64,000 bases of DNA from Chiloscyllium plagiosum. Taxonomy: Eukaryota. Numbering within the stretch: the first letter of the stretch is position 1; every line of letters begins with the position of its first letter. Below, piece by piece: positions 4,141 to 55,099 of this stretch. The position numbers and the translations under genes are program-made. The DNA is taken from assembly GCF_004010195.1 (NCBI RefSeq), contig NC_057719.1, forward strand, positions 2,596,784 through 2,660,783. The letters are read 5' to 3'. Under the pieces are notes generated by a model, which saw only the letters and a program-made list of their open reading frames with translations, searched no databases and was not told the DNA's origin.

Positions 4141-6430
4141 ATAGAACATTACAGCGCAGTACAGGCCCTTCGGCCCTCGATGTTGCGCCGACCTGTCATA
4201 CCAATCTGAAGCCCATCTAACCTACACTATTCCATGTACGTCCATATGCTTGTCCAATGATGACTTAAATGTACTTAAAATTGGTGAATCTACTACCGTT
4301 ACAGGCAAAGCATTCCATACCCTTACTACTCTCTGAGTAAAGAAACTACCTCTGACATTTGTCCTATATCTATCACCNNNNNNNNNNNNNNNNNNNNNNN
4401 NNNNNNNNNNNNNNNNNNNNNNNNNNNNNNNNNNNNNNNNNNNNNNNNNNNNNNNNNNNNNNNNNNNNNNNNNNNNNNNNNNNNNNNNNNNNNNNNNNNN
4501 NNNNNNNNNNNNNNNNNNNNNNNNNNNNNNNNNNNNNNNNNNNNNNNNNNNNNNNNNNNNNNNNNNNNNNNNNNNNNNNNNNNNNNNNNNNNNNNNNNNN
4601 NNNNNNNNNNNNNNNNNNNNNNNNNNNNNNNNNNNNNNNNNNNNNNNNNNNNNNNNNNNNNNNNNNNNNNNNNNNNNNNNNNNNNNNNNNNNNNNNNNNN
4701 NNNNNNNNNNNNNNNNNNNNNNNNNNNNNNNNNNNNNNNNNNNNNNNNNNNNNNNNNNNNNNNNNNNNNNNNNNNNNNNNNNNNNNNNNNNNNNNNNNNN
4801 NNNNNNNNNNNNNNNNNNNNNNNNNNNNNNNNNNNNNNNNNNNNNNNNNNNNNNNNNNNNNNNNNNNNNNNNNNNNNNNNNNNNNNNNNNNNNNNNNNNN
4901 NNNNNNNNNNNNNNNNNNNNNNNNNNNNNNNNNNNNNNNNNNNNNNNNNNNNNNNNNNNNNNNNNNNNNNNNNNNNNNNNNNNNNNNNNNNNNNNNNNNN
5001 NNNNNNNNNNNNNNNNNNNNNNNNNNNNNNNNNNNNNNNNNNNNNNNNNNNNNNNNNNNNNNNNNNNNNNNNNNNNNNNNNNNNNNNNNNNNNNNNNNNN
5101 NNNNNNNNNNNNNNNNNNNNNNNNNNNNNNNNNNNNNNNNNNNNNNNNNNNNNNNNNNNNNNNNNNNNNNNNNNNNNNNNNNNNNNNNNNNNNNNNNNNN
5201 NNNNNNNNNNNNNNNNNNNNNNNNNNNNNNNNNNNNNNNNNNNNNNNNNNNNNNNNNNNNNNNNNNNNNNNNNNNNNNNNNNNNNNNNNNNNNNNNNNNN
5301 NNNNNNNNCAGAGGATCCTAGGATAAATCCCATCCGGCCCAGGGGACTTATCTATTTTCACACTCTGCAGGATTTCTAATACCTTTTCCTTGTGAACCTC
5401 AATCCCACCCAGTCTAGTAGTCTGTATCTCAGTATTCTCCTCAATAACATTGTCGTTTTCTAGAGTGAAACCTGTCATTTAGTGCTTCCCCTATCTCCTC
5501 TGACTCCACACACAACTTCCCACTACTATCCTTGATTGGCTCTAATCTTACTCTTGTCATTCTTTTATTCCTTAAATACCTATAAAAAGCCTTAGGGTTT
5601 ACCTCGATCCTATCTGCCAACAACTTCTCATGTCTCCTCCTGGCTCTTCTGAGTTCTCTCTTTAGGTCTTTCCTGGCTACCTTGTAACCCTCAAGCGCCC
5701 TAACTGAGCCTTCACATCTCATCCTAACATAAATCTTCTTCTTCCTCTTGACCAGAGATTCCACTTCCTTCGTAAACCGCAGCTCCCGCGCTCTACAGCT
5801 TCCTCCCTACCTGACAGGTACATACTTATCTAGGACACAAGGAGCTTTTCCTTGAATAAGCTCCACATTTCTAATGTGCCCATCCCTTGCAGTTTCCTTC
5901 TCCATCCTATGCTTCCTAAATCTTGCCTAATCGCATTGTAATTGCCTTTCCCCCAGCAGTAACTCTTGCCCAGTGGTATACACCTATCCCTTTCTATCAC
6001 TAAAGTAAACATACCAGAATTGTGATCGCTATCACCAAAGTGCTCACCTGCTTCCAAGTTTAACACCTGGCTGGGCTCATTACCCAGTACCAAATCTAAT
6101 GTGGCTTCGCCCCTTGTTGGGTTGTCTACATACTGTGTCAGGAAGCCCTTCTGCAAACACTGGACAAAAACTCATACTATGATGTTCCCAGTCAATATTT
6201 GGAATTGAGAATCATCTTTGCTATCCTTTCCTCTACATCTCTGGAACTATTCGGAGGCCTATAGAAAACTTCCAACAGGGTGACCTCTTCTTTCCTGTTT
6301 CTAACCTCAGCCCATACTACCTCAGCTGACGAGTCCTCAAACATTCTTTCTGCAACTGTAATACTGTCCTTGATCAACAATGCCACACCTCCCCCTCTTT
6401 TACTGTCTTCTCTGTTCTTACTGAAACATC
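4141..6430 (-). mobile_element. CR1-clade LINE (second subfamily), endonuclease region to 3' tail, spanning a gap
   Basis: EVFYRPPNS, LDLVLGNEP...FGDSDHN, DKSPGPDGIYPRIL and FFTQRVVRVWNALP; same subfamily as 56396-60463. Confidence 0.9.
4378..5308. other. Assembly gap (N run)
   Basis: Run of N. Confidence 1.
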
Positions 6431-7685: not shown

Positions 7686-9707
7686 CCCTAGAACTCTGTG
7701 GGAAGCTAGAGAAGTGATTGCTGGGCCTCTTACTGAGATACTTGTATCATTGGTAGTCACAGGTGAGGTGCTGAAAGACTGGAGGTTGACTAACATGGTG
7801 CCACTGTTTAAGAAAGGTGTTAAGGATAAGCCAGGGAACTATAGACCGGTGAGCCTGACCTCGGTGGTGGGCAAATTGTTGGAGGGAATCCTGAGGGACA
7901 GAATGTACATGTATTTGGAAAGGCAAGGACTGATTAGGGATAGTCAACATGGCTTTGAGTGTGGGAAATCATGTCTCACAAACTTGATTGAGTTTTATGA
8001 AGAAGTAACAAAGAGGATTGATGAGGGCAGAGCGGTAGATGTGATCTATATGGACTTCAGTAAGGCTTTTGACAAGCTTCCCCATGGGAGACTGATTAGC
8101 AAGGTTAGATCTCACGGAATACAGGGAGAACTAGCCATTTGAATACAGAACTGGCTCATAGGTAGAAGACAGAGGGTGGTGGTGGAGGGTTGTTTTTCAG
8201 ACTGGAGGCCTGTGACCAGTGGAGTGCCACAAGGATCGGTGCTGGGTCCACCACTTTTCATCACTTTTTTTCTTTCTTTCTCCCCCACACTCCCGCCTAA
8301 CTACAGTAGTGCTTATACTTTTCCCCAGCACCCATCTGGTGTGTGTGCAGGTGTGAGACACAATGAAAGACAACAGGTGTACAAATCTTTATTCAATTTC
8401 CACCACCAGAAAGAAAGGAAACACCCGAGTGGCCAGTGACAAGCAGTGCCCTTCACATCAGAGGGCAGTGCTGCGTGATCAAACAGTGAAGGGGGAGGGC
8501 AGGGACTAAATCAAAATAGAGTTGTGGGGGAAATAATACACTCCACTCCCTGCGGCGCCCACCTCTCCCTGAACAACTCCAGGGTGTTGGTGGACACCGC
8601 GTGCTCCTTCTCCAGGGACACCAAGGCTCGGATGTAGCCGTGGAAGAGGGGCAGGCAGTCGGCCCTAACGACTCTCTCCACAGCCCACTGCCTGGACCTG
8701 TTTATGGCCAGTTTGGTCGGGCCCAGGAGCAGAACTTTTTGCCATTTATATAAATGATTCAGATGTGAGCATAAGAGGTATAGTTAATAAGTTTGCATAT
8801 GACACCAAAATTGGAGGTGTAGTGAATAGCAAAGAAGGTTATCTCAGATTACAACGGGATCAATTCAGATGGGCCAATGGGCTGAGAAGTGGCAGATGGA
8901 GTTTAATTCAGATAAATGCGAGGTGCTGCATTTTGGAAAAGCAAATCTTAGCAGGACTTATACACTTAATGGTAAGGTCCTAGGGAGTGTTGCTGAACAA
9001 AGAGACCTTGGAGTGCAGGTTCATAGCTCCTTGAAAGTGGAGTTGCAGGTAGATAAGATAGTGAAGAAGGTGTTTGGTATGCTTTCCTTTATTGGTCAGA
9101 GTATTGAGTACAGGAGTTGGGAGGTCATGTTGTGGCTGTGCAGGACATTGGTTAGGCCACTGTTGGAATATTGCGTGCAAATCTGGTCTCCTTCCTATCG
9201 GAAAGGTATTGTAAAACGTGCAAGGGTTCAAAAAAGATTTACACGGATGTTGCCAGGCTTGGAGGATTTGAGCTACAGGGAGAGGCTGAACAGGCTGGGG
9301 CTGTTTTCTCTGGAGCATCGGAGGCTGAGGGTGACCTTATAGAGTTTATAAAATCATGAGGGGCATGGATAGGGTAAATAGACAAAGTCTTTTCTCTGGG
9401 GTGGGAGTGTTCAGAACTAAAGGGCATAGGTTTAGGGTGAGAGGGGAAAGATATAAAAGAGACCTAAGGGGCTACTTTTTCATGCAGAGGGTGGTACATG
9501 TATGGAATGAGCTGCCAGAGGAAGTGGTGGAGGCTGGTACAATTGCAACATTTAAGAGGCATTTGGATGGGTATATGAATAGGAAGGGTTTGGAGAGATA
9601 TGGGCCAGGTACTGGCAGGTGGGTTTAGATTGGGTTGGGATATCTGGGCAGCATGGATGAGTTGGACTGAAAGGTCTGTTTCCATGCTGTTCGTCTCTAT
9701 GACTCTA
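7686..9707 (+). mobile_element. CR1-clade LINE, RT domain to 3' tail
   Basis: [49 protein letters not shown] and C-terminal motifs. Confidence 0.93.
8264..8733 (-). mobile_element. Tx1-clade non-LTR retrotransposon 3' fragment
   Basis: Minus translation LLLGPTKLAINRSRQWAVERVVRADCLPLFHGYIRALVSLEKEHAVSTNTLELFRERWAPQG resembles the Tx1 ORF2 C-terminus; AATAAA and A-rich tail; degenerate 11-bp TSD at 8253-8263 and 8734-8744. Confidence 0.75.
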
Positions 9708-12123: not shown

Positions 12124-13062
12124 NNNNNNNNNNNNNNNNNNNNNNNNNNNNNNNNNNNNNNNNNNNNNNNNNNNNNNNNNNNNNNNNNNNNNNNNNNNNN
12201 NNNNNNNNNNNNNNNNNNNNNNNNNNNNNNNNNNNNNNNNNNNNNNNNNNNNNNNNNNNNNNNNNNNNNNNNNNNNNNNNNNNNNNNNNNNNNNNNNNNN
12301 NNNNNNNNNNNNNNNNNNNNNNNNNNNNNNNNNNNNNNNNNNNNNNNNNNNNNNNNNNNNNNNNNNNNNNNNNNNNNNNNNNNNNNNNNNNNNNNNNNNN
12401 NNNNNNNNNNNNNNNNNNNNNNNNNNNNNNNNNNNNNNNNNNNNNNNNNNNNNNNNNNNNNNNNNNNNNNNNNNNNNNNNNNNNNNNNNNNNNNNNNNNN
12501 NNNNNNNNNNNNNNNNNNNNNNNNNNNNNNNNNNNNNNNNNNNNNNNNNNNNNNNNNNNNNNNNNNNNNNNNNNNNNNNNNNNNNNNNNNNNNNNNNNNN
12601 NNNNNNNNNNNNNNNNNNNNNNNNNNNNNNNNNNNNNNNNNNNNNNNNNNNNNNNNNNNNNNNNNNNNNNNNNNNNNNNNNNNNNNNNNNNNNNNNNNNN
12701 NNNNNNNNNNNNNNNNNNNNNNNNNNNNNNNNNNNNNNNNNNNNNNNNNNNNNNNNNNNNNNNNNNNNNNNNNNNNNNNNNNNNNNNNNNNNNNNNNNNN
12801 NNNNNNNNNNNNNNNNNNNNNNNNNNNNNNNNNNNNNNNNNNNNNNNNNNNNNNNNNNNNNNNNNNNNNNNNNNNNNNNNNNNNNNNNNNNNNNNNNNNN
12901 NNNNNNNNNNNNNNNNNNNNNNNNNNNNNNNNNNNNNNNNNNNNNNNNNNNNNNNNNNNNNNNNNNNNNNNNNNNNNNNNNNNNNNNNNNNNNNNNNNNN
13001 NNNNNNNNNNNNNNNNNNNNNNNNNNNNNNNNNNNNNNNNNNNNNNNNNNNNNNNNNNNNNN
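12124..13062. other. Assembly gap (N run)
   Basis: Run of N. Confidence 1.
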
Positions 13063-28121: not shown

Positions 28122-28404
28122 TTAGATTAGATTAGATTCCCTACAGTGTGGAAACAGGCCCTTCGGCCCAACCAGTCCACATCGACCCTCCGAAGATTAA
28201 CCCACCCAGATCCATTCCCCTCTGAGTAATGCACATAACACTACAGGCAATTTAGCATGGCCAATTCACCTGACCTGCACATCTTTGGACTGTGGGAGGA
28301 AACCCACGCAGACACAGGGAGAATGTGCAAACTCCACACAGACAGTTGCCCCAGGCTGGAATTGAACCCAGGTCCCTGGCGCTGTGAGGCAGCAGTGCTA
28401 ACCA
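28122..28404 (-). mobile_element. HE1-type V-SINE, full length
   Basis: Minus strand GGCACGGTGGCTCAGTGGTTAGCACTGCTGCCTCACAGCGCCAGGGACCTGGGTTCAATTCC (A and B boxes); (CTAAT)n tail. Confidence 0.9.
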
Positions 28405-28683
28405 CTGAGCCACCGTGCCGCCCCAAATTAGAATTAGAATAGGTAGGTACAGACTTGATGGGCCAAAGGGCCTTTTTCTGTACTTTAGGCTTCTATGACT
28501 CATTGATTAACACAGACAGTTGCCCCAGGCTGGAATTGAACCCAGGTCCCTGGCGCTGTGAGGCAGCAGTGCTAACCACTGAGCCACCGTGCCACCCCAA
28601 ATTAGAATTAGAATAGGTAGGTACAGACTTGATGGGCCAAAGGGCCTTTTCTGTACTTTAGGCTTCTATGACTCATTGATTAA
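28337..28683 (+). repeat. 174-bp tandem duplication
   Basis: 28337-28510 and 28511-28683 differ by one substitution and one T. Confidence 0.95.
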
Positions 28684-36799: not shown

Positions 36800-37890
36800 T
36801 TGATGCACATCCAGAGGACTGTCAGGTTGCATCAAACAGTTGAACTCTTTGGTTGCTGGCAACAAACAAGATATTGACTGTACCATCACCCGCCAATGCT
36901 GGCAAAACGCAAAACACAAAACACAAAACACAGTGTCCAAATGTCATACGCAATTCTGTGATTGGACAGCATTTGCTGAATCACTCTGAGTTTGTTAGGC
37001 TGACAAACAATTGTCAGGTTTGCAGAGTGGCATTCCCATTTACAGATGTGGGTACTGCTGACTACACCATTGCCATGGGTGTACAGTCAGATGTAGGTAG
37101 AAGTGGGTACTGCAGATGCTGGAGATTAGAGTCAAGGTTAGAATGGAGCTGGAAAAGCACAGCAGATCAGGCAGCATCCGAGGAGCAGGATGAAGGGCTG
37201 ATGAAGGGCTCCTGCCCGACTCTCCTGCTCCTTGGATGCTGCCCGATCTGCCGTGTTTTTCCAGCACCACTCTCATCTTGACTATAGTCATATGTAGACC
37301 AGGCCAAGTATAAAAAGCCAATTTCCATCCTTAAAGGACATGAGTGAATCAGTCACATTTTTCGCAACAATCATTGGAGTCTTAATTCCAGATTTTTATT
37401 CAATTTAAATACACTATCTGCCAGGACAAGATTCAAACCTGGATCCACTGAACAGTACCTGAGTCTCTAGATGAATAGTTTAGTATACTACGATGATGCC
37501 ATTGACACCCTTTGTAGATACTGGAATATTTGCAGGGCAGAAAGAACATGTATAAACATGATGCCTGTCTCATTTCAACAAAACAGGGGACAGTCATTCA
37601 CAAGCTCACTTCTCAAGGCAATTCCAGTGACAAATTAAAAGTCAACTTGTCTGGTTTAACATTTAAACAAAGCTTGGCTGTTAACTGTCGGATATCATTT
37701 AACACTTGCATTTCCCATTGTAACACCTCTACCTAACAAAGTCCATTTGCCAACCAATCAGCAGTCTCTTCTCAGACAGTATTTGTAACAAGAAATGCTT
37801 TTCCTTTACGTTGGTATTCTTGTGATTTGTCCTGATGTGTGCAAGATGAAAAGTTTTAATAAAATGTATAACTTTTCAGCAATATTCAAC
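36800..37890 (+). mobile_element. Ancient Penelope-like 3' remnants (family F) mixed with a SINE and a fold-back insertion
   Basis: SVIGQHLLNH near 36955; decayed hammerhead-like motif at 37827-37862; fold-back insert 37097-37285 with a 12-bp TSD. Confidence 0.5.
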
Positions 37891-40498: not shown

Positions 40499-41707
40499 GC
40501 ATTGATGTCTTCCCTAAAGTGTGATGCTTGGTAGAATGCTTTATAAAGGCAAGCTTGTTTTATATATCTCACCTCTATTTATAAAGTCAAGCAGTCCATA
40601 TGCTTTTTTGTAGAACATTTTGAACTTGTCCTGTCATTTCTCAGAGACATGTACATACATGCCAGATGTCTCTGTTCCTGCATGCCTTTTAAAATTGCAT
40701 CATCCCATTTATATCTCTTAGTTTTTCCTACAAGAATCAAATGTCACTCAATCTCTAAATTAACTTTCACTTGCCTAGTGTCTGCCCAGTTCCTCAAAGT
40801 CCTCCTAAAGTTTGCTGCTATTTTCCTCACTGTTCACTGCAATTTGAAGTTGGTGTGTTTTGCGAAGTTTAATATTAGCTTCTGTACTTTTAGATCACTC
40901 CATTCCTTCATGTGATTTTAGACAAGAAACAAAGCTAATGCCATATATTCCAGGCTGATGTGTGGCCTTTCACACATGCAGCTTAGCAGGACCACCTGCT
41001 AGAACATCCCAGCCTTCCAGGTGCACTAACTGAGCTAGAATCCGAGCAATTGCAAGCATTGCCTAAACATGTCATTACCTAGAACTTAATAGGAGACATA
41101 CATGCCACAGAATGTACAGCCAGTGGATTCTAGTTGGCCGTTATTTTGCTTTTATTTCATTCCCCATGATGGTTGCCGATGGTTTTTGACCTATACACAT
41201 TGCAGATTAGAAGAATCTTATTAAAATATAACAGATTCCAAGGGGACTCCCCTGTTCCAGAGGTGTGTAATAGCATCTCCAAGCAGGTTTATTAGAAAAA
41301 TAGGTTTGATAGTGTATGTAGGGACACAGTTTAAATATTAGGGTCTCTCATTAAAGAGAGAGCTGAGTTTTGCTTTCTCAGAGGGTCTGTAATCTTTGAA
41401 AGTCTCTTCCCAGAGAACATGGGAACACTTCTGAGGTTGAGATAAATTTTTAATCCACAAAGGAGAGAGGGGTTGTGGAGGCACAGAAAATTAAGTGGGG
41501 TTGAGGCTGTGATCAGATCAACCTTAATTTATCAAATAATGCAGCATATATAAGGGATTTAAATGTGTATAGCTGCTCTCATTTCTTGTGTATTTTATAT
41601 ATGTTTCTGAAATAACCCAGGAAGCCCAACTTTAAAGGAACATAATTTCTTGTTGAACACTAAAATAGAGCCATTATTCATGATATACATAGGTTAGTCC
41701 CAGCCCT

Positions 41708-42945
41708 GGGTCTGCTTTCTTTCAAAGTATCTGAAAATGCTCTTACACAGAACAGAATGGTTTTCCCACCACTAAATCATTGTGACATTTTCTCAACTAC
41801 TGACCACCACCTGTGTAGCCAATTAAATATTTACAAGCAAAGCCCACTATGGGCATTACAAACCATTAAACATAAGAGGAGATAGGAAGAGTGGGCAACA
41901 ATCAAATCAAAATGGGGTTAGAGGGCAAAGGGAGTCTGCTTTCTTTCTCTAACACTCATAAGTACTATCATGCACAACCGAGCACCTTTCCCACTACCAA
42001 ATCTCCATGACTTTTTAAAACTACTAACACCAACACCAGTAATAGGGGTCTGCTTTACATATTTCCTAATCAACCGGATCAATGAAGTTATTACACTCCT
42101 CTGGAGGAGGCCCAGGGCTCAGAGACAGGGACACTATCGTTACACCAAATGACCCTATAGGGGTCTTTGTTTTTATATGCCCAGAGGTGTTGCCACATGC
42201 AATGGAGTAACTTTCCCACCACCAAAATTACCATTTTTAAAAATGTTTTCTTTGCTTTAACTACTGACCAACCAACAGTAGTCACCTGTGTAGGCAATTC
42301 AGCATTAACACACAGAGTCCACTATGGGCCATTTAAATCATTAAAAGTGCAGGGGGTGTGGAAGCATGGGAGGTGACTAAATCAAGATGGAGTTGGAGGG
42401 GGAAACAAAGCAATGTTTCCCCTGCGGTGCACATCTTTTCTCTCAAGGTGGCGAGCGTGTTAATGGACACGCATACTCCTTCTCCATGGACACAAACGTA
42501 ACCCCAAAGAGAGGCAGGGAGTTTGCAAAGATGACCCTGCCACAACCTGCTTTCTAGAGGGGTCTGCCTTATTTTTATTTGAAACTACTAACCACCACCA
42601 GTAACTAATGTGTAGTTAATTAAATATTTACAAGCAAAAGATTAGATTAGATTACATTACATTACAGTGTGGAAACAGGCCCTTTGATCTAATCTAATCT
42701 AATCTAATCTAATCTAATCTAATCTAATCTAATCTAATCTAATCTAATCTAATCTAATCTAATCTAAAACCCATTACAGACAATGCAGTGTCAAAGGAGG
42801 TTGAGATATGTATCATTTTAAAAGCTTAATCTACTTTGCCTAATCAACCTGTTCAGAGATGTTATTACAGTATGGTCTCTGAAGAAGATGGGACTTGAAC
42901 CCAGGTTTCTCAGTCCAGGGGTAGGGGCCACTGTGCTGATGAGTT
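41708..42945 (-). mobile_element. Cluster of Tx1-like 3' fragments and tRNA-type SINEs
   Basis: 42375-42550 aligns by eye with Tx1 fragment 8505-8690; 3' UTR motif AACTACT(G/A)AC recurs four times; SINEs at 42054-42156 and 42835-42945. Confidence 0.65.
42687..42767 (+). repeat. (AATCT)n microsatellite, about 16 units (SINE-tail derived)
   Basis: Perfect pentamer run. Confidence 0.95.
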
Positions 42946-44047
42946 CTAATAAAAAGGATCGTTGCCTGTTACCCAGAGAACTCATACCCAGTCAGCTCCA
43001 CATAGAGATTAGGGATTCCCCATGGGCCTAGTAGGGGTTATCACAAGGCCCAACTTTATGTATGTTTCCATTTAATATCCCCTTTGTTCTATTATGTACA
43101 AATATCTACCTCATTCCAATTTGGATCCCTGCAGAATTGGTCTATTTAGCTTTATCCCTTAGATCTGAACAATTACTCTGCTGTTTTCCATAATTAATGC
43201 TGTGCCTTAATTTTAACTACTTAGCATTTCATCCCTCCTACATTCAATTCCTATTTACCAAATTCCCGTAGTCACTTCTGAGCAAGCTAATCCATGTATA
43301 AGATTCATTTAACTTTCACCCAGCTCTGTGCTTGCCACCAAACTGTACCTTTCAAAACGTATCACTCATTTAATTATGCTGAGCCTTCTCAAAATTGCAC
43401 ATGTAGCTTGTGAACTTTGGCACTTTTGAACTTTAGATAGTACTGAATTGAGTTCTGTGGTTACCCGTTTGTGTCTGCTTCCAGTTTCTGGTTTATTCAT
43501 GAATATACATCATGATCCTACAGTGTTGTGACTACTTCTTCTTTCCTGTGATGTACTATATCTTATCTGTAACATCTCAGATTTTACATCAGGTCAAATT
43601 AAGTCACCCAATAAAACAAATTCCAAATTCTCAGCAGTTGTTTCGCCAAGTTGGCAGGACGGATGAGCGCTTCAATGCCTGAATATGCTGAGGCATTACA
43701 TGTTGATGCTTCTTGTTGCTTTGCACCATAATTAACAGAGAATGGTGCACCCCAAACTACATAACACCAGTTATTTCTCAATATAGTCCTTTGTGGACTA
43801 TAGCCAATTGCTTTACTGTAATTCTTCACATTTTCACAACAAACCATTTCCTATTCTTCAGGAGCCTCCTCAGGATGCAGACAGACATAGAGTACAAAAT
43901 TATCATTCATTTCCCAACCATCACTCAGCTTTCCTACAGCTGGGGAACAGAAAATTTGAAGACCAGAATCTCAAACTCGAATTGAGGTCATAGCTCACCA
44001 GAGAGCAATGACCCTCTTATAAGCTGCTGAGGCTTGGATAACCTTCA

Positions 44048-50869: not shown

Positions 50870-52495
50870 CTTTTGCAGGTAAAGGGGGTAATGCACCAAA
50901 CGCTTGTGATTTCAAATAAGCCTGTTGGATTATAACCAGATGTTGTTTGATTTCTGAACCTGTCCACCCCAGTCCAACACCGGCACCTCTGCATCAGAAA
51001 TGATCAAAACATTGTGAGAGTCTGGAACTCAATGAGTGAAAGAATGGTTGAGTCTGAAACTTTTGAGACATTTAAGCAATATTTATGTATTTGCTTGTCC
51101 TACCATCATCCTCCAGGCCAATGGGCAAACAGCTGGAAGATAGGATTAGTACAGTCTGATCCTTGTTGACGAGCTTGGACACATTGGCAGAATAGCTTCC
51201 TTCTGTGCTGTAAATGTCTATGAGTCCTCATATGTTGTCAGAAGTTCATACAGTTCACACTTATAGTTTACTAGAAGTAGTCTGTAAAATGTCCACTAAA
51301 TTCCATGTGGCCTCCACTTATAAATCAAACTGAAATGATTCTTTTTGTGCATTGAAATCATCATTATCACAGAGTGAGCTATTCAGCCAACCATAAATGA
51401 GTCAACTGAATTTTATGACAAGCAAAACAAAAATGCTTGTTTCTGTAAATAATTCTTTACCATAAAGTGTGTAATGGAACTCATCAGTGGTACAGACATG
51501 GCAGCAAGTAATGGTGCTGCTGCATAAATGTGAAGAGTTCAAGGTGCTTTTTAGGGTCCTCATGGTATACTGCTAGGGTCCCAACCTCTGCACTAGGAGA
51601 TCTAGGTTCAAGTCTCATCAGCTCCTGAAATATATGATAATATTTCTGAACAGGGAGATTAGAAAATATAAATGTGAAGAATTAACTGCAGGAAGGGCAT
51701 GTAGCTGTAAAATCACCTGTTAATTTCAAATGATGATTAAAAGAATTAAAATGGCAGCCCGGTCAGGACTCACTCTGCAAATGATGCACAAGGTCTCTAC
51801 CTGAACCCTACGTGGAACAACCAAGGGTTTCTATTAAGGGAGCAAGGATGGCTAAAGAGGGAAAACCAAAGGAAAAGTGAAAAGATGATCAAGCTTAAAA
51901 AGGCACACCTTTATGGACATACGAAATAGGTCAATTGGATCTTTGAATCTTCTCCACCATTTTGGAAGATCATGGTTAATCTGATATATGTAGTGATCCA
52001 GCCTCGAATGCCCACTAGGGAAGACAATTCCAAACACTAATGACCCTCAGGGAAGAAAGTTCTTCTAATCTTTATCTTAAATGGGAGACCCGTATTTTAA
52101 AACTCTGCTTCCCAGTTTCGAGACTCCTGCACAAGAGTCTCTCAGGGCAGAATGATCCCAGCATATGAATGATAAGGGAAAAGCAATAAAATTGAGAAAA
52201 TACATTGAATATGAAAAAAAATTATTGATGTGAAGATTATTTACTTTGAAGGAAAAAAACCTCGATTTTCTCCTCAAGGATTCAACGGCTAGACGATAGT
52301 CTTGCTAGTAAATAGCAAGGGCCCTATTTGCATTATTACCTTTTTTACATGCAGGATGCTAGTGTCCTTTAGGGAAGATAATCTGCTGTTGATTGCTGAT
52401 CTGGCCTGTACATGACTCCAGATCCATGGCAATCTGGTTCATTTATAACCAATCATAGCATATAGGAGCAGAAGTTGGCCATTTAGCCCATCAAG

Positions 52496-54704: not shown

Positions 54705-55099
54705 NNNNNNNNNNNNNNNNNNNNNNNNNNNNNNNNNNNNNNNNNNNNNNNNNNNNNNNNNNNNNNNNNNNNNNNNNNNNNNNNNNNNNNNNNNNNNNNN
54801 NNNNNNNNNNNNNNNNNNNNNNNNNNNNNNNNNNNNNNNNNNNNNNNNNNNNNNNNNNNNNNNNNNNNNNNNNNNNNNNNNNNNNNNNNNNNNNNNNNNN
54901 NNNNNNNNNNNNNNNNNNNNNNNNNNNNNNNNNNNNNNNNNNNNNNNNNNNNNNNNNNNNNNNNNNNNNNNNNNNNNNNNNNNNNNNNNNNNNNNNNNNN
55001 NNNNNNNNNNNNNNNNNNNNNNNNNNNNNNNNNNNNNNNNNNNNNNNNNNNNNNNNNNNNNNNNNNNNNNNNNNNNNNNNNNNNNNNNNNNNNNNNNNN
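54705..55099. other. Assembly gap (N run)
   Basis: Run of N. Confidence 1.

Follow-up and report, generated by a model that had tools for sequence, protein, structure and literature searches.

The closest described counterparts of the arrangement reported here are the Tx1-Mar LINEs and SINEU elements of crocodilians, which share sites within a Mariner element and have target-site duplications of 16 nt (Kojima 2015, PMC4494074). The sections of that paper available to us read tandem SINEU-3 copies 'sandwiching a TSD' as sequential insertion, and take a Tx1 family to be target-specific when more than 20% of its flanks are one target sequence (PMC4494074). They also describe Tx1-8_Crp and Tx1-4_AMi, crocodilian Tx1 families aimed at LTR retrotransposons. 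Tx1L of Xenopus laevis uses an APE-type endonuclease to make a sequence-specific nick in another transposon, Tx1D, a DNA transposon of the piggyBac type (PMC4494074, PMC1950540). Double-insertion tandems of R1 and of the P element in Drosophila, mostly dimers of a single family, keep the target duplication between their members, with varied 5' truncation of the non-LTR ones (McGurk and Barbash, bioRxiv 10.1101/158386). As to cartilaginous fish, the accessible text of one study records Tx1-like repeats in whale shark and Callorhinchus and gives no targets (PMC8455134), and that of two others names no shark target (PMC3747384, PMC8869645).

Here we analyse a window, meaning the whole stretch of 64,000 nt of repeat-rich Chiloscyllium plagiosum DNA under study, in which a real and old stack records five or more insertions at a target that renews itself and lies next to, or within, a multicopy repeat. 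Compared with the available descriptions of these systems, the stack is like Tx1-Mar/SINEU-3 in that a LINE and a SINE occupy a common site, which here too would lie inside another transposon, and in its sequential tandems. It differs in that the host there is a Mariner element and the SINE, of which the host flanks 313 of 347 copies, has a U2-derived head (PMC4494074), whereas here the SINE is of tRNA type and also inserts elsewhere, the host is LTR-like and the motif is a different one. The candidate LTR host recalls Tx1-8_Crp and Tx1-4_AMi, and full-length relatives of the window's ORF2 end appear to carry a targeting loop like that of Tx1L; unlike Tx1L, the stack is known from 3' ends alone. 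The R1 and P element tandems share the duplication between members and the varied truncation, but the stack has five mixed units inside a host repeat. In the literature covered, which lies outside Repbase Reports and subscription journals and was partly accessible, we found no report of this motif as a Tx1 target in sharks. The behaviour of the locus appears, by analogy, to be that of Tx1-Mar and SINEU and to involve no new principle.

Motif copies and units of the stack

The five motif copies that the earlier note had placed at the stack were borne out, each of them adjoining the A-rich tail of a minus-strand unit (Table 1). Scored against the copy at 42042-42056, the other four reach 11, 11, 10 and 11, values attained by 0 of 6039 background 20-mers. 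The bare count of the 11-mer GGGTCTGCYTT with at most one mismatch is at chance level (4 matches in the window, a number also reached by 26 of 100 shuffles). All four matches nevertheless fall on one strand within the 863 nt of 41708-42570, a clustering for which our own arithmetic gives a chance near 1e-5. A sixth copy, proposed earlier as a 'degenerate motif' before the second SINE, was rejected, its score of 4 being reached by 89% of the background. Departures from a clean model are the missing ATAG of copy 1, three differences in copy 5 in species B, and the end of the stack, where scoring against background 20-mers found no clear closing copy after the last unit.

Table 1 Features of the stack and of the repeat around it, in window coordinates.
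Feature	Position	Strand	Remarks
Left copy of 14-nt direct repeat bracketing the composite	41594..41607	+	13/14 identical; candidate host-made duplication
Host left half	41608..41707	+	Multicopy repeat; TG start, 11-nt arm, TATA-like box at 41684
Motif copy 1 (GGGTCTGCTTT)	41708..41718	+	Upstream ATAG of copies 3-5 missing
Unit 1: Tx1-like 3' UTR and last 8-9 ORF2 codons (about 41902-41930)	41719..41930	-	z 15.3 to unit 3
Motif copy 2	41931..41942	+	1 mismatch
Unit 2: short 5'-truncated Tx1-like 3' UTR	41943..42041	-	z 5.4, 5.5 and 4.0 to units 1, 3 and 4
Motif copy 3 (ATAGGGGTCTGCTTT)	42042..42056	+	Fullest copy
SINE 1: tRNA-type	42057..42156	-	A-box-like head, no B box; 10-nt exact direct repeat on both sides; multicopy
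Motif copy 4 (ATAGGGGTCT)	42157..42169	+	2 bases shorter
Unit 3: Tx1-like 3' UTR and broken ORF2 C-terminus (about 42377-42550)	42170..42554	-	Matched by blastn and tblastn, weakly by profile
Motif copy 5	42555..42570	+	3 upstream positions differ in species B
Unit 4: Tx1-like UTR lacking the 3'-most segment of units 1-3	42571..42638	-	z 11.9 to unit 1
Unrelated later insertion: fold-back retroposon tail, (ATCTA)16	42639..42767	.	Splits unit 4
Probable continuation of unit 4	42768..42826	-	z below 1 against every unit; collinear with unit 1 by eye
SINE 2: SINE 1 family	42835..42945	-	B box kept; z 9.2 to SINE 1; no motif and no duplication found
Putative host right half	42946..43054	+	AATAAA at 42948; arm ending CA at 43035-43045, 9/11 complementary to 41608-41618
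Right copy of 14-nt direct repeat	43055..43068	+	Pairs with 41594..41607

The motif stands on both sides of units 1, 2 and 3 and of SINE 1, forming flanking direct repeats of 16 nt (tail letters included), 12, 12 and 10 nt, respectively. It thus behaves as a target-site duplication, each insertion rebuilding the site, which supports the earlier proposal of a self-regenerating target filled by sequential insertion. The related Tx1 copy at 8262-8735 has a different, decayed duplication of about 14 nt, and the SINE copy at 51553-51670 is flanked by a 16-nt duplication (15/16) of sequence unrelated to the motif. As these other copies in the window lack the motif and have duplications of their own, the motif belongs to the site; the evidence rules against a motif that is the elements' own terminus, one of the findings that would have told against the earlier proposal.

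Units 1-4 are homologous: each of the six pairs scores above every one of 300 shuffles (z 4.0-15.3), and identity at aligned positions is 69-91%. An A-rich 3' tail, 5' truncation and a target duplication of roughly 10-16 nt are all present in units 1-3. The 5' cut points and the lengths vary (about 210, 100, 385 and 70-130 nt) and SINE 1 has its own two-sided duplication, which speaks, as had been argued, against a simple tandem duplication. Units 1 and 3 reach the ORF2 stop codon. The ORF2 C-terminus of unit 3 is frameshifted and contains stops, with about 55 last codons surviving; it matches 8504-8624 by blastn (72% over 123 nt, E 4e-11) and the protein P0003 by tblastn (E 3e-4). Against a profile of 13 relatives the match of unit 3 is weak (E 0.082), although it ranks highest outside the 8.5-kb copy (8262-8735) among 2742 pieces. 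The earlier reading of the units as Tx1-like pieces stands, with two corrections: unit 1, described as UTR only, includes ORF2 codons, and 42167-42556, assigned wholly to ORF2, is coding in origin only over the stretch given in Table 1.

Unit 4 terminates in an A-rich tract internal to the element (42571-42590), where the minus strand reads AATAAA, an arrangement suggestive of either internal priming or premature polyadenylation. In the insertion that splits this unit, 42639-42667 and 42682-42710 are inverted arms of one 5-nt tail repeat, resembling the tail of a twin-primed retroposon, presumably of CR1/HE1 type; we found no flanking duplication around 42639-42767.

The host repeat and the stack in three species

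Contigs derived from reads, from four of the 24 runs listed, were mapped on 41420-42638 at 80% likeness. Contigs of the window's own species differ from it at 1 position over 41420-41837 and at 3 over 41819-42638; the run may be that of the source sample. Given this coverage, the stack is no assembly artefact. Species B covers 41420-41698, 41671-41832 and 41817-42604 with 8, 7 and 30 differences, and species C covers 41735-42105 and 42108-42638 with 12 and 26. Over 41420-42638, units 1-4 and SINE 1 are common to three species about 3-5% apart, and because this part of the stack is shared, the stack is old. The comparison of unit number at the orthologous locus, which the earlier note had called for, therefore gives the same units in all three species over this interval. 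Among the 15 joints listed of 90 there was neither an empty site nor a motif-to-motif joint skipping a unit. The description of the stack as a polarised archive holds as far as sequential insertion is concerned, but is overstated, since the units are common to three species over this interval, no recent loading is seen, and the arrangement has a precedent in print (PMC4494074).

The target, left unrecognised in the earlier note, can be placed at the edge of, and probably inside, the multicopy repeat at 41608-41707. Own-species contigs are about 4 deep at 41543-41583 but 265 deep at 41625-41665, and contigs from other loci number 40, 51 and 46 at 41649 in species A, B and C. Among the 24 pieces listed, with 2006 more beyond the listing, 15 are of this host repeat from other loci; they start at 41606-41619 and end at 41701-41709, with 0 of the 15 running through the motif. 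That these pieces stop before the motif may reflect the altered copy 1, or a motif that lies outside the host.

From its terminal features we lean towards reading the host as a solo LTR, short at about 210 nt, which would extend from 41608 to about 43045-43054; the inserts, every one of them antisense to it, would have split it close to its start site. The 14-nt direct repeat that brackets the composite occurs at only 2 places in the window at no more than one mismatch. Chance alone yields such a repeat at 123 of 8207 positions and, once a slack of ±5 is allowed, at 53 of 1500. The inverted arm alone has 13 window matches at the stringency of its own match (9/11). Repeat and arm together were found at 1 of 4626 TG starts, namely at this locus, in a test devised after the locus had been seen. 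An LTR element is expected to have a target duplication of 4-6 nt. None of that size stands directly outside TG...CA; the 14-nt repeat is found instead, with 9 extra bases after CA on the right.

A 13-nt direct repeat (12/13; 41622-41634 and 43046-43058), unique in the window, lies in the left host half and overlaps the right flanking repeat. No second copy of the host was found in the window, the sole weak match (37785-37823, E 4.1) being rejected, and the host pattern gave 0 hits in metagenomes and 0 in viral contigs. A structural RNA gene as target was also rejected: Rfam matches at gathering score number 0 over the window, those in 41000-43400 number 3 and are at chance level (E 4.6-7.1), and ARAGORN gives none. 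A bacterial promoter scan, not relevant here, found nothing.

Relatives of the Tx1-like units and of the SINEs

The stack units keep neither endonuclease nor reverse transcriptase (RT), and the label 'Tx1-like' is supported through their relatives, not from the units themselves. The window holds a better-kept Tx1-like 3' end at 8262-8735, with a different UTR and about 70 ORF2 codons, inside the RT region of another LINE, which we take to be of CR1 type. Used as query, this copy returned 50 protein matches, the top one of which, P0002, a SEA-domain mucin, was a compositional false match and was dropped. Among its relatives a zf-RVT domain was found once at the Pfam cut-off and three more times below it, and P0053 matches the copy directly (E 6e-7). 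A chain via P0004 and P0052 leads to full ORF2s of 1304-1306 residues with endonuclease (PF03372) and RT (PF00078). P0058, one of these full ORF2s, gave no match of its own to the Tx1 pieces of the window. Its endonuclease scores 81.8 bits on 2V0R, the L1 endonuclease onto which, according to the accessible text, the Tx1L targeting loop was grafted (PMC1950540), versus 63.3 on the plain L1 endonuclease 1VYB; the difference is due to the loop, where 8 of 13 positions are identical. A cluster look-up returned no Tx1 name. The units are likely to belong to a target-specific Tx1 family.

Relatives of the 8262-8735 copy reach a depth of about 520 reads at 42386 in a 1.9-Gb read sample, indicating that this copy comes from an abundant family. 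The sole return of a first homolog search was P0001, a CutA isoform model of Chiloscyllium punctatum that includes about 40 residues of the Tx1 ORF2 C-terminus, either as an exonised Tx1 piece or through a gene-model error. In viral and prokaryote contigs, 0 occurrences of the ORF2 C-terminus were confirmed.

The SINE family has four copies in the window and is multicopy in the read runs. Its heads were read with A- and B-box patterns that we take to be those of Pol III, and the copy at 51553-51670 has both boxes; across copies the family is short, multicopy and provided with A and B boxes, as a tRNA-derived SINE should be. Neither ARAGORN nor Rfam found a tRNA gene in the window. A tail common to SINE and LINE units was considered and rejected (z -1.0 to 1.3 against units 1-4).

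The earlier note had also proposed that the SINE is a partner inheriting the specificity of the LINE, a claim that is weakened by the unrelated duplication of the 51553-51670 copy and by the tail flanks. For these flanks, the tail-side loose ends of 18, 21 and 19 records in three runs give consensuses that are AT-rich with low agreement (0.43-0.54) and from which the motif is absent, in a sample that is small and with variable tails that blur the consensus. The motif stands beside one of the four window copies, whereas most copies of a SINEU-3-type partner are flanked by the LINE target. The SINE is best read as a passenger of L1/Tx1-type machinery in general, and not as a dedicated partner. 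A search with the SINE tail pattern in metagenomes gave 28 loci that match at most about 30 nt of the SINE profile, and these are attributed to chance. Read on the primer strand, the target of the SINE at 51524-51683 bears a loose likeness to that of the Tx1 copy at 8.3 kb, a hint, from two cases only, of a second class of targets.

How the stack may have formed

We think it probable that one site in a short multicopy repeat was used five times or more, through target-primed reverse transcription, by a sequence-preferring LINE subfamily of the Tx1 clade. By analogy with L1 and Tx1 biochemistry, the endonuclease would nick the + strand at the T-run ending ATAGGGGTCTGCTTT, and the T-ended 3'-OH would prime on the A-rich tail of the RNA. 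A second nick 12-16 nt away would duplicate the motif, and each event would leave two intact targets, so that later copies, almost all of them 5'-truncated, could land at the same place and in the same orientation; in one event a SINE RNA would have been used in trans. The T-run end of the motif beside each tail is consistent with the target-primed reverse transcription known from L1 and Tx1L. The enzyme and a family-wide preference for the motif are what we infer from these insertions, not what the locus itself displays.

The same mechanism could have operated at a local hot spot that attracts L1/Tx1 endonucleases of loose specificity, with no dedicated subfamily. The 8262-8735 Tx1 copy and the 51553-51670 SINE used other sequences and the tail flanks of the SINE yield no motif consensus, both in favour of this reading, and double insertion at one site is described, in the accessible text of the source, as general among transposons (bioRxiv 10.1101/158386). 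However, without a real preference it is difficult to see how five insertions would share one base position and one orientation in a repeat that is old and non-genic, and the UTR of the 8262-8735 copy differs enough (z 4.2 to unit 1 and 0.0 to unit 2) to indicate another subfamily. The joints between distant parts of the locus also hint that host and UTR meet at other loci. Of these, among the 15 listed of 90, one from 41722 to 41811 leads from 21 letters ending in the motif into the UTR (species A and B), another from 41642 to 41817 leads from 32 host letters into the UTR (species B and C), and two have the UTR segment twice in a row; with sides of 21-46 letters and a low likeness setting, they hint at further stacks. 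We regard the hot spot as unlikely.

That every copy of the motif sits directly at a tail, and that the host-repeat pieces aligned from elsewhere end immediately ahead of it, would also fit a motif carried by the elements, as a 3'-transduced flank or a fixed terminal sequence, with no target duplication involved. Yet SINE 1 bears the motif on both sides without any likeness to the LINE tail, and the motif is missing from other LINE and SINE copies, which makes this reading very unlikely. A decayed old tandem duplication of a motif-plus-tail unit, to which the SINEs were added later, could account for the homology of units 1-4 and for their all starting at a motif copy. We find it barely credible given the differing unit lengths, the ORF2 stretch of unit 3 that is missing from the others, the two-sided duplication of the SINE itself, and contigs from other loci that match the Tx1 units in all three species.

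If sequence-preferring Tx1 insertion is the right reading, the known Tx1 targets gain a motif from a cartilaginous fish and a host that is probably LTR-like, and the locus indicates that an ordinary tRNA SINE can enter a site of this kind and yet not be tied to it. Such stacks record the order of insertion and can date subfamilies, and a site that stays open to independent insertions calls for caution when retroposons serve as markers in phylogeny. A defined target of 12-15 nt would give a Tx1 endonuclease some interest for targeted insertion tools.

The finding would carry greater weight only if the host promoter read such stacks antisense into small RNAs. The TATA-like box at 41684, a start near the motif and the AATAAA at 42948 would place a putative LTR promoter in opposition to every captured unit, as in a self-loading antisense trap, a scheme that we consider highly improbable; none of the 18 holders returned by a DNA search is registered as RNA. 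Were it true, an LTR family would file LINE 3' ends and SINE passengers into Pol II units read antisense, feeding germline small RNAs directed at the LINE family, as a dispersed, transposon-built analogue of a piRNA cluster.

Elsewhere in the window, three runs of N (4378-5308, 12124-13062 and 54705-55099) each lie within a LINE-like stretch, and 28336-28683 is a two-copy tandem of a 174-nt SINE-like unit with 98% matches.
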